Origin: Escherichia phage vB_EcoP_phi296
DNA length: 57,221 bases
Sequence record: PV189400.1
Strand: one strand, 5' to 3'
Positions within the stretch are counted from its first letter, which is position 1; each line of letters starts with the position of its first letter. A program made the position numbers. Of the stretch, positions 54,001-57,000 are shown one piece after another.

Positions 54001-57000
54001 CCCAGAAAGCGGGTATTGCGTCATTCTGTCCTTACAACATTGGCCCCGGTAAGTGTTTCCCGTCGACGTTTTATAAACGAATTAATGCAGGTGATCGAAA
54101 AGGTGCCTGCGAAGCGATTCGCTGGTGGATTAAGGACGGTGGCAGAGACTGCCGTATCCGCTCAAATAATTGCTACGGTCAGGTATCAAGACGTGACCAG
54201 GAGAGTGCGCTGTCATGCTGGGGTATCGACAGGTAAGCAGAATATTTTGCTGAAAAATGACGTTGGCCAACGCGGGCAGATAACACGAAATCCTGCGAAC
54301 TGGCAAAATGTAAGTGAATAAAGTCAACAAGATTGTTTCATGAAGAGGCACCGTAATGGTGCCTTTGTCATTTCTGCGCTTCGCACAAGCGTAAATAAAC
54401 CAAAGAACCTTTCAGGATGAGCCCTGGTGGATAACCGGCAGTGGTCTGGTTAACCCTCTTTGGGCTGGTTATTCCTGTGCGCAGGGTTCATCACTAAAAG
54501 GAAATAACCGATGAATATGATGACCGTGCCGTTTCACGGCGATTCTCTTTATGTGGTTAACCATAACGGCGAACCATACGTTCCCATGAAACCTGTCGTT
54601 GCGGGGATGGGGCTGGCCTGGCAATCACAGTTGGCTAAGTTAAGACAGCGTTTTGCGTCAACTATAACGGAAATCGTTATGGTTGCTGAGGATGGGAAAC
54701 GACGCAATATGGTGTCCCTGCCGCTTCGAAAACTTGCAGGCTGGTTACAAACCATCAATCCCAACAAAGTAAAACCCGAAATCCGCGGCAAGGTAATCCA
54801 GTATCAGGAAGAGTGTGACGATGTTCTCTATGAATACTGGACGAAGGGTTTTGTCGTTAATCCCCGTCGAATGAGTGTGATGGAAGAACTCAATCAGGCT
54901 TGCGCTGACATGAAACGGGATAAAAACATTGCCAGTGTGTTTGCTACCGGGCTGAATGAGTGGAAACAGGTTAAATCCGCGCATGTATCAAAAATCCGCA
55001 CATTGATAAACGAAGCGAATCTGCTGATTGATTTTGTCCTGGCTGATACAGGCAAAGGGAAAATAACAAAGGCGGATTGATGGAGTGGTGGCTAATGATA
55101 TCGGATAAACTCATAACGCTGGCGAAGATCCTCTGTGTAATCGTCGGCATTTCATTTTTAGTCATGCTGGTTGCCATTTTCTTTTCCACCGCCTGGCGAG
55201 TCCTGACGTTATCGGGACTGGTGGGGTGAAAGAGAGATGAACCGTGTTCTGTGTGTGGTGATTATTGTCCTGCTGGTAGCCTGTGGTGCGCTTAGTCTGG
55301 GGCTGAATCATTACCGCGATAACGCCATAACCTACAAAGAGCAGCGCGATAAAAAAGTCAGTGAGCTGGAGCTGGCAAATGCAACCATTACTGATATGCA
55401 GCAGCGCCAGCGTGATGTTGCTGCACTTGATGCCAGATACTCGAGGGAATTAGCCGATGCGAGAGCTGAAAATGAAACTCTTCGCGCTGACGTTGCCGCT
55501 GGTTACCGCAGCCTGCGGATCAACGCCACCTGTCCAGGTCCCGTGCGTGAAGCCACCGGCACCGCCCGCGTGGATAATGCAACCGGCCCCCGACTGGCAG
55601 ACACCGCTGAACGGGATTATTTCACCCTCAGAGAGAGGCTGATCACTATGCAAAAACAACTGGAAGGAACCCAGAAGTATATTAATGAGCAGTGCAGATA
55701 GAGTTGCCCATATCGATGGGCAACTCATGCAATTATTGTGAGCAATACACCCGCGCTTCCAGCGGAGTATAAATGCCTAAAGTAATAAAACCGAGCAATC
55801 CATTTACGAATGTTTGCTGGGTTTCTGTTTTAACAACATTTTCTGTGCCGCCACAAATTTTGGCTGCATCGACAGTTTTCTTCTGCCCAATTCCAGAAAC
55901 GAAGAAATGATGGGTGATGGTTTCCTTTGGTGCTACTGCTGTCTGTTTGTTTTGAACAGTAAACGTCTGTTGAGCACATCCTGTAATAAGCAGGGCCAGC
56001 GCAGTAGCGAGTAGCATTTTTTTCATGGTGTTATTCCCGATGCTTTTTGAAGTTCGCAGAATCGTATGTGTAGAAAATTAAACAAACCCTAAACAATGAG
56101 TTGAAATTTCATATTGTTAATATTTATTAATGTATGTCAGGTGCGATGAATCGTCATTGTATTCCCGGATTAACTATGTCCACAGCCCTGACGGGGAACT
56201 TCTCTGCGGGAGTGTGCGGGGATAATCAAAAACGATGCACACCGGGTTTTCTCATTTTTCACGAGATGGGAGCGATTTCCCGCGAAGCCGCCTGTCCGGT
56301 GCGGTGGTGGAAGAAACCGGATAAAACAACCGCATTGTGCAAATATCGATCAAATATGGTGCTGCTGTGTGAAATCTGAAAAATCACAGCGGTCATTATG
56401 CATCAGTTTTTAACACAGGACGTCAGAACGTGACATGGCAAAGCTGGACTGGAAAAAGCTGGAGCAGGCATTCCGACGCGAACATGCCGAAACGGGAATA
56501 ACATTACTGGACTGGTGCCGGAAGAAAAAGATTAATTACAACACCGCCAGAACCCGTATAAAAATGGGCAAAATCGATCATGAAATTGATCATAAAACCG
56601 ATCATGAAATCGATCATGACATCTCAGATGAAGAACCCTGCAATGACGCGGGTTCCGGCGATGAAAAATGCGCAAAAAACTCTGAAAAAAACTGCGCAAA
56701 TTCGGCAGAAACGAAACGGATTCGTGGTTCCCGACTTTTACCACCTTCAAACGCTTTTTCTCAGCGAAACACCCACGCCGTAAGACACCGTGGATATGCG
56801 AAGTATCTTGAGGCAGATAACCTCATGGATGATGCGTCCGACATGGTGCTGTTCGATGAACTGGTGTTCACCCGGGCCCGCGCACTTTCAGTAACTAAGG
56901 CACTTAAAGGGATGTTCGCCGACCTGGAAGAGGCAACTGACGTGGAAACCCGTGTTGCTCTTTACGACAAAATACTCAAAGCTGAACAGGCCCTTGACCG

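Follow-up and report, generated by a model that had tools for sequence, protein, structure and literature searches.

What an antirepressor-type gene might do in the middle of a phage lysis cassette is the question raised by ant of Escherichia phage vB_EcoP_phi296 (sequence record PV189400.1; the window analysed here is this whole stretch of 57,221 nucleotides). The gene (54511-55080, + strand) starts with ATG, encodes 189 amino acids (aa) and lies between the endolysin and spanin genes, as the initial annotation of the window had claimed and as the open reading frame (ORF) call, Pfam and membership in PHROG 524 bear out. Its protein is of a short form that joins P22_AR_N at residues 5-113 (Pfam, E 8.5e-45) to ORF11CD3 at residues 122-164 (Pfam, E 2.5e-6); PHROG 524 is named 'anti-repressor Ant' (E 1.5e-112) and placed in the category transcription regulation. 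The presence of such a gene in the lysis cassette is already known and common. Deposited records of phage 7888 (AJ279086), Stx2 phage I (AP004402) and the Stx1 phage (AP005153) have long named a gene 'ant' at this position, the last two with the note 'regulation of host cell lysis'. A 1-kb ant segment is found at a coverage of at least 80% in 691 of 5426 complete E. coli genomes, with a median of 2 and a maximum of 11 places per matched genome, and the protein at the same coverage in 263 phage records. Literature searches by the position between R and Rz, by protein accessions and by Pfam names found no functional study of the lysis-cassette ant. What is new here is the distinctness of a lysis-linked short form, a conserved leader in front of it and the occurrence of other cargo genes under the same leader. 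The explanation we favour, and consider rather probable, is that ant is swap-in cargo of a late-operon cassette, transcribed through Q read-through, held back in translation by RNA structure and encoding a DNA-binding-type protein.

The leader RNA of ant

The approximately 170 nucleotides (nt) upstream of ant are conserved across genera though the genes preceding them are unrelated, and three hairpins are predicted there on the + strand. Hairpin 1 (54340-54376), identified by terminator scan and by folding, combines a terminator-like G+C stem (core 54344-54366) with a T-rich tail; in 19 of 22 instances, an equivalent hairpin with a T-run precedes the long hairpin by 35-56 nt. Folding also predicts hairpin 2 (54375-54393), a short stem of TGCGCTT and AAGCGTA, whose counterparts at other loci are, by eye, short stems in the same place made of other letters. 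The long hairpin (54408-54501) is imperfect, extends over about 94-95 nt and is recovered both by folding and by a covariance model. At its base, CCUUU (54408-54412) pairs with AAAGG (54497-54501), covering the Shine-Dalgarno (SD) sequence 9 nt before the ATG.

The minimum free energy (MFE) of the long hairpin in the window is -43.1 kcal/mol (z -3.6), and all 11 Enterobacterales leaders tested fold singly, as MFE or centroid structures, into an SD-pairing hairpin, with z-scores from -2.0 to -5.8. In 16 of 17 cases the + strand folds more stably than the - strand (mean difference 9.5 kcal/mol), and it contains 1-8 G-U pairs against 0-3; both the asymmetry of the strands and the G-U pairs point to RNA and not to DNA symmetry. 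The covariance model was seeded with seven Xenorhabdus and Photorhabdus sequences and rebuilt on 16 matches (model R2), the window being kept out of the training. R2 finds the leader at 54404-54513 with 48.4 bits (E 1e-8), its sole match in the 57-kb window. Where the model scores the + strand at about 94-116 bits, the minus strand of the same sites reaches about 20-27 bits.

In the 22-sequence alignment produced by the model (A11), 94.2% of cells are paired against 74.8% in shuffles, a level reached by 0 of 500 shuffles, which is not to be read as a probability. Compensatory changes on both sides are seen in 26 of 30 pairs, and sliding the partners by 1-3 columns brings the paired cells down to 37-52%. 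A separate set of 63 distinct sequences, retrieved from IMG/VR by DNA pattern, behaves similarly: 92.3% paired against 84.7% in shuffles, 22 of 30 pairs compensatory, and 32-50% paired with slid partners. Scanning IMG/VR by protein yielded nothing but near-identical E. coli copies (at least 90% identity), which were left unused for covariation. Rfam 15 has no match at E<=1 in 53300-56200 of the window, and in P22 and Xenorhabdus it gives sub-threshold matches only, mostly over the terminator hairpin and none covering the long hairpin. By its sequence, the leader of ant appears to be a conserved structured RNA that hides the SD sequence; being absent from Rfam while occurring in P22, in Shiga toxin (Stx) phages and in at least 120 viral contigs, it is a candidate for a new RNA family.

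Other readings of the leader were tried and dropped. Neither a LexA box (CTGT-N8-ACAG) nor a sigma-70 promoter between hairpin 1 and the long hairpin was convincing by eye, and a scan with a simple sigma-70 consensus found no promoter-like site on the + strand of 53300-56200. A mini-ORF of 5 codons (ATGAGCCCTGGTGGATAA) in the 5' arm was rejected as a leader peptide, Xenorhabdus and Serratia having no ATG there.

An exchangeable slot and its cargo

Other E. coli prophages have the same endolysin end, followed by the same small hydrophobic ORF and Rz, with a 60-aa ORF replacing ant. Alignment with these ant-less cassettes places mosaic break points near 54325 and 55098. Since the same flanks hold the 60-aa ORF elsewhere, these comparisons identify ant as the cargo of an exchangeable slot, of which versions without ant exist.

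The 120 homologs listed (61-94% identity) are about 150-210 aa long and all carry P22_AR_N and ORF11CD3; they come from Escherichia, Salmonella, Photorhabdus, Xenorhabdus, Serratia, Proteus, Providencia, Sodalis, Arsenophonus and Hamiltonella. Sixteen aligned short-form sequences share 58 invariant columns, and ant is under purifying selection, with dN/dS of 0.13 against the Stx1-phage allele and 0.12 against a Salmonella ortholog. For the gene context we drew on called genes, on loci of one genome per species and on ORFs that we called ourselves and searched against Pfam. In E. coli, Salmonella, Proteus vulgaris, Providencia, Serratia, Arsenophonus nasoniae and three Xenorhabdus species (X. 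hominickii, X. lircayensis, X. stockiae), the short form comes immediately after the endolysin gene and is followed by the spanin gene; in Photorhabdus it comes immediately after Rz. The endolysins at its flanks are GH24, GH108 with PG_binding_3, a weak M15-like match, or a 133-139-aa type with no Pfam match; the holins are of P21 type, holin_3_1, or holin_8 with holin_3_7; and the spanins are Rz or DUF2570/LysC. Judged by these assignments, the lysis genes around the short form belong to unrelated families, yet its position is conserved. Exceptions are Acinetobacter, Psychrobacter and Symbiopectobacterium (a KilA-N gene upstream, HNH and terminase genes downstream). The relatives in Acinetobacter (loci L041 and L056) and Psychrobacter (L074 and L083), which lie outside Enterobacterales, sit among head/tail or other genes; their leaders contain a terminator-like hairpin and other hairpins, are unmatched by the model and were left out of the family.

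A contrast group was formed by 48 loci with long P22_AR_N proteins (about 230-400 aa) and their 142 neighbouring ORFs. Arc-like proteins account for 31 of the 142, and others are ribbon-helix-helix, helix-turn-helix or S24 proteins; no lysis family is present among the 25 families listed for these neighbours. P22_AR_C is present in 6 of the 47 long P22_AR_N proteins scanned, and the leader model gave no match adjoining the gene at the long-form loci. Thus described, the long forms look like immI of P22, and the short form seems to be a different, lysis-linked lineage. The protein of the window has the architecture of the Bro network, a P22_AR_N head joined to a variable tail (here ORF11CD3). 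This network is reportedly one of domain-shuffled phage regulators with KilA-N, Bro-N, Rha, P22_AR_N and ORF6N heads.

The leader is not confined to ant. The model matches it before KilA-N genes in Symbiopectobacterium (L027), Salmonella phage MG40 and E. coli phage ECP1, before Rha genes in Mangrovibacter (L042) and Arsenophonus (L026), before rha of P22 (65.2 bits, E 6e-14), before a Bro-N gene in Xenorhabdus (L043) and before an HNH endonuclease gene in ECP1; it has no match at the loci with the 60-aa alternative cargo (L003 and L004) or at the starts of long-form genes. A scan of IMG/VR DNA with a pattern made of the two arms of the middle helix only returned at least 120 stretches, from which 80 loci with 82 matches were kept. 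Among the matches listed, 70 of the 82 are followed by an ATG-initiated ORF of at least 60 aa, which starts 19-24 nt after the pattern in all 64 distinct cases. The 64 distinct proteins comprise 29 Rha, 15 KilA-N, 11 HNH_3, 4 P22_AR_N, 4 P63C and 2 Bro-N assignments, with AP2 domains in 5 and ORF11CD3 in 17. The two ORFs upstream of each (115 altogether) mostly encode lysis proteins or Q antiterminators; they include 15 Rz, 13 Phage_lysozyme, 4 GH19, 3 holin_3_1 and 13 Q-type antiterminators, as well as a few nin or replication genes. Leader-cargo modules are found after Rz, directly after Q, or among nin genes, in addition to the position held by ant.

Antirepressor-like genes of the Bro network are among the commonest unexplained genes of temperate phages, Shiga-toxin phages included. 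A large subset of them appears to share a structured leader and a slot behind a terminator in an antiterminated operon, mostly beside the lysis genes. The shared leader makes the timing and mode of their expression accessible to testing, and links ant of the Stx phages to rha of P22 and phi80.

In several phages there are two leader-cargo modules, separated by a few kb or arranged in tandem (L190, L199, L200, L225, L237 and L239 from IMG/VR, and L026, L027 and L095); in Symbiopectobacterium a KilA-N gene is followed by ant, each with its own leader. In P22 (L093, 39539-39647), rha is annotated from a GTG at 39575, a position within the apical part of the predicted leader hairpin. Where the leader model expects the start codon there is an in-frame ATG (39644) with AAGAAGG before it, so that the true start may be 23 codons downstream of the annotated one. 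An ORF of about 62-88 aa with the motif FIEKNV..EL.K.GY ... HYRRS.SAS.KGK..DDC..IAKAWA repeatedly follows a leader-cargo gene (L016 4642-4854, L022 2283-2549, L026 4550-4756, L027 4648-4857, L043 958-1146, L028 5211-5474). It lacks a Pfam match and does not occur in the window; the genera that have it are Photorhabdus, Arsenophonus, Symbiopectobacterium, Xenorhabdus and Proteus.

Expression and activity of the cassette gene

The initial annotation expected ant to be expressed late, from the promoter pR'. The late promoter (-35/-10 hexamers, 49776-49801, + strand) and the terminator tR' (49871-49893, + strand) were located through a 130-nt segment of AP004402 that carries putative -35/-10 and terminator annotations and is identical in the window, letter for letter. 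By analogy with lambdoid biology, tR' would be read through only by Q-modified polymerase. Every assigned gene from 52500 up to ant is on the + strand, and the promoter scan described above leaves late transcription from pR' plausible. What that expectation overlooked are the terminator-like hairpin and the SD-pairing hairpin; because they lie upstream of ant, its expression is probably gated and not simply 'late and high'.

Under the explanation we favour, the recurring unit consists of a terminator-like hairpin, a short hairpin, an SD-pairing hairpin of approximately 95 nt and a small gene for a DNA-binding-type protein, and resides in operons transcribed by antiterminated polymerase. Unmodified polymerase would halt at hairpin 1, leaving no product in the lysogen, and Q-modified RNA polymerase arriving from pR' would pass it to make ant mRNA. 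The dependence on Q-modified polymerase is suggested by the lack of a recognisable promoter together with the terminator-like hairpin upstream. The long hairpin would then keep translation low until it is opened or cleaved, by RNase III or another factor at a guess. The short-form protein would most likely bind DNA or another regulator in the late lytic phase and would not belong to the lysis machinery itself. Such a double lock would suit cargo that does harm to the phage or to lysogeny unless its timing and amount are right, as is reported for rha and roi on IHF-mutant hosts. The protein is unlikely to take a direct part in lysis, given that some slots are empty or filled with other cargo and that the module is also found after Q.

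AlphaFold2 (AF2), run on a 16-sequence alignment, gives a model with a predicted local distance difference test (pLDDT) score of 66.9 overall and about 80 at residues 20-100. Its topology is beta-beta-beta-alpha-alpha-beta-beta-alpha-alpha followed by a long helical hairpin, and the N-terminal domain tentatively resembles the KilA-N/APSES-type fold that has been proposed for such domains; the ORF11CD3 tail would be helical. A search of PDB sequences with the protein gave no meaningful match, its sole hit being a designed repeat protein (E 0.014).

Several points weigh against the proposed explanation. Its statements on transcription and translation are inferred from sequence, and a stable hairpin could serve mRNA stability or processing in place of translational control. 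Hairpin 1 of E. coli has a weak T tail (TGTCATTT) and may terminate poorly, and the promoter scan was limited to a simple sigma-70 consensus. Some of the single-sequence z-scores are modest (-2.0 to -2.9). Covariation was counted on alignments fitted by the model, and the sequences are related by descent, which is why the shuffle control is not a probability. Structure-blind MAFFT alignments analysed with RNAalifold gave only fragments of the stem, because the arms are misaligned between groups, and were replaced by single-sequence folds and alignment to the covariance model. The AF2 model is of middling confidence at its overall pLDDT, and the fold assignment drawn from it is tentative.

A different function, the one behind the suggestion of the initial annotation that repressors of co-resident prophages may be targeted, is that of a true late antirepressor, which would inactivate CI-type repressors of co-resident or superinfecting heteroimmune phages or block re-repression of the phage itself. 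The 48% identity to P22 Ant over its N-terminal 126 residues, the membership in PHROG 524 and the double control by terminator and SD sequestration, which would suit a protein dangerous to lysogeny, are in keeping with it, as are the many lambdoid prophages of enterohaemorrhagic E. coli (EHEC) genomes and the several places that the ant segment takes up in them. We nevertheless regard this function as rather unlikely. Pfam finds only ORF11CD3 after residue 120 and no P22_AR_C, the sole region that the tested Phi24B-type Ant has in common with P22 Ant (PMC3064807); the leader and slot also take Rha, KilA-N, Bro-N, P63C and HNH proteins, indicating a broader DNA-binding role and including, with the HNH endonucleases, proteins that are plainly not antirepressors; and production together with the lysis genes would leave a second prophage little time. 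Because P22_AR_C is absent, antirepressor activity is unproven and 'antirepressor' is only a name for the lysis-cassette protein, which should not be read from annotations as its function. It is improbable, in our estimation, that the unit is a selfish mobile cassette spreading between phage late operons with little benefit to the phage and with a leader that limits its cost. The presence of the same leader on HNH_3 endonuclease genes, the AP2 domains in 5 proteins of the same set of 64, the sharp mosaic boundaries and the occurrence of several modules in some phages would agree with such a cassette, and the free-standing homing endonuclease genes of T4-type phages are likewise controlled by hairpins that hide the ribosome-binding site (RBS) and by upstream terminators, which limits their cost. 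Against this stand the lack of a nuclease domain in the ant protein by Pfam, its purifying selection (dN/dS 0.13) and the high conservation of the family across genera, with the invariant columns noted above.

A regulator tuning the expression or timing of holin, endolysin or spanin, in line with the depositors' note in AP004402 and AP005153, would account for a place between endolysin and spanin that is conserved despite unrelated lysis genes; this place may simply be one at which antiterminated slots flanked by terminators are available. Numerous cassettes that are identical apart from ant do without it, the leader-cargo module is also found after Rz, directly after Q or among nin genes, and Pfam and PHROGs detect no lysis-family domain in the protein, whose PHROG category is transcription regulation, so that we give a lysis regulator quite a small chance. 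A function of the long inverted repeat as DNA, in recombination or as a protein-binding site, is scarcely credible. Its closeness to a mosaic junction and the weak minus-strand matches of the covariance model, which a sufficiently good palindrome would give on both strands, would fit such a site, and are outweighed by the more stable folding and more numerous G-U pairs of the + strand, by minus-strand scores far below those of the + strand, and by the start codon at a fixed distance of 19-24 nt past the 3' arm. An extension of the gating proposed for ant is possible, if doubtful: the leader might be a conditional RNA switch of a new class, opened under certain conditions by a trans-acting factor, for instance RNase III, some other protein of phage or host, a small RNA, or a signal sent by a rival phage or satellite, and might act as a shared 'socket' for interchangeable DNA-binding effectors (Rha, KilA-N, Bro-N, P22_AR_N, P63C, HNH) in phage-phage or phage-satellite conflicts. 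If true, it would explain how rha and roi turn harmful when host factors are missing. The late or nin-region genes rha of phi80 and P22 (orf201 in the latter) and roi of HK022 reportedly inhibit phage growth on IHF-mutant hosts; we know of no IHF-related phenotype for ant of the Stx phages.

Several known systems resemble parts of this arrangement. The immI region of P22 (mnt-arc-ant with the sar antisense RNA) has P22_AR_N in common with the window gene (48% identity over 126 residues), and both genes lie inside a late transcription unit under tight RNA-level or repressor control, according to the P22 annotation. The window gene differs in having no P22_AR_C, no Arc/Mnt-like neighbours and no sar-type antisense unit: no Arc/Mnt-type gene lies between R and ant, where each listed ORF of at least 40 aa overlaps R or ant, in another frame or on the opposite strand. 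Control is exerted in P22 by a repressor pair and an antisense RNA, and here by a predicted cis hairpin over the SD sequence. P22 rha is closer in this respect, placed just after the lysis genes and preceded by the same leader, Rha being the commonest leader cargo (29 of 64 among the matches listed); its N-terminal domain is of the Rha winged-helix type, as opposed to P22_AR_N in the Stx-phage gene.

In Phi24B, a 933W-type phage, an antirepressor-like ant gene precedes the qut site and is hence early; its knock-out reduces the activity of a pR' reporter, late after induction with norfloxacin, to about 27-31% of the wild-type level, and its product resembles P22 Ant only in the last 104 residues, at 82% identity (Fogg et al. 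2011, PMC3064807). This similarity fits another gene of the window, 46350-47027 (ORF6N and P22_AR_C), whose product matches P22 Ant over residues 122-225 at 82.7% identity. It does not correspond to the lysis-cassette gene, which lacks the C-terminal domain.

RBS-sequestering hairpins control gene e, I-TevI and mobE in T4-type phages, and the lambda N leader has an RNase III site. The control of mobE includes an upstream terminator, and a T4 late promoter inside the hairpin frees the RBS. In these genes, as in ant, a stable hairpin pairs the SD sequence of a gene that needs expression at the right time. They differ from ant in that no promoter was found in the window leader, lambdoid late transcription coming from one distant promoter, and in that the window hairpin is a distinct conserved sequence family with no Rfam match. 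With the morons of lambdoid phages, ant shares sharp mosaic boundaries and the status of an optional addition inserted among essential late genes. The classical moron has its own promoter and a downstream terminator and is expressed in the lysogen, whereas ant has a terminator-like hairpin upstream and no promoter that we could find, which points to expression in the lytic phase only.

The lysis region, other antirepressor-like genes and the phage

The remaining genes of the lysis region are those of a P21-type holin S (53483-53698, + strand; Phage_holin_2_1, E 7e-33), an endolysin R that is a phage lysozyme with a hydrophobic N-terminus (53703-54236, + strand; Phage_lysozyme, E 3e-24) and is labelled R or lysozyme in identical phages, the i-spanin Rz (55237-55701, + strand; Phage_lysis, E 2e-49) and the o-spanin Rz1 embedded in it (55457-55642, + strand; Rz1, E 3e-22), all assigned by Pfam, with bor (55733-56026, - strand) downstream of Rz. 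Directly upstream of Rz is a small hydrophobic ORF (55080-55229, + strand), a RefSeq hypothetical protein of 49 aa from an ATG at 55080, which overlaps the stop codon of ant, or of 41 aa from an ATG at 55104. It has no match in a Pfam search and is kept in the ant-less cassettes (L003 and L004, 1851-1982); it might be an unrecognised component of the lysis cassette.

The initial annotation had counted four antirepressor-like modules in the window, and Pfam agrees with all four assignments, placing none in an unrelated family. The other three are an AntA + P22_AR_C gene (31867-32520, - strand), where the leader model has no match, the ORF6N + P22_AR_C gene of Phi24B Ant type in the nin region (46350-47027, + strand) and a Roi-like ORF with NinF, Phage_pRha and ANT/KilAC in the nin region (47447-48397, + strand). 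The first had been called early-left; its orientation is leftward, from which early expression may be presumed. The view that four modules constitute an unusual redundancy did not survive comparison with other phages, made gene by gene through per-gene counts. Beside the counts for ant given above (263 phage records, 691 of 5426 E. coli genomes), the nin-region type of 46350-47027 is present at a coverage of at least 80% in 167 phage records, and the 25-kb stretch (32300-57200) in which three of the four modules lie is shared to 80-88% by the nearest relatives. By these sequence comparisons, four antirepressor-like modules are normal for this phage group.

In the Roi-like ORF, NinF, Rha and KilAC follow one another in a single uninterrupted frame of 316 aa with a GTG start. 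Its counterpart in AP004402 is annotated as similar to HK97 Roi; in Stx2 phage I this Roi-like gene (ORF-68) is annotated separately, with a short ORF-67 before it. The single frame is either a gene fusion or an artefact of using the first in-frame start.

Several published phages, among them Stx2 converting phage I (AP004402) and Shigella phage 75/02 Stx, match the lysis region (53400-56100) at 100% identity, and at least 80% of it is covered by 216 phage records; the ant protein is 100% identical to that of Shigella phage 7888 (AJ279086). Over the 25-kb stretch, the closest relative is Escherichia phage vB_EcoP_phi315 (88% coverage, 99.9% identity). From its identity to these published phages and the match to phi315, the window is classified as a 933W-type lambdoid phage, and from the gene content described next as a stx-negative one. 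Its collinearity with Stx2 converting phage I extends to 50350 and resumes at 50386/50717, and the absent segment of approximately 1.3 kb, which holds the stx2A/stx2B operon, corresponds to 50350-50386 of the window against 4664-6001 of the Stx2 phage I locus (L001). The three tRNA genes (50062-50311) and nanS-p (50842-52779) on either side of the missing operon are still present.

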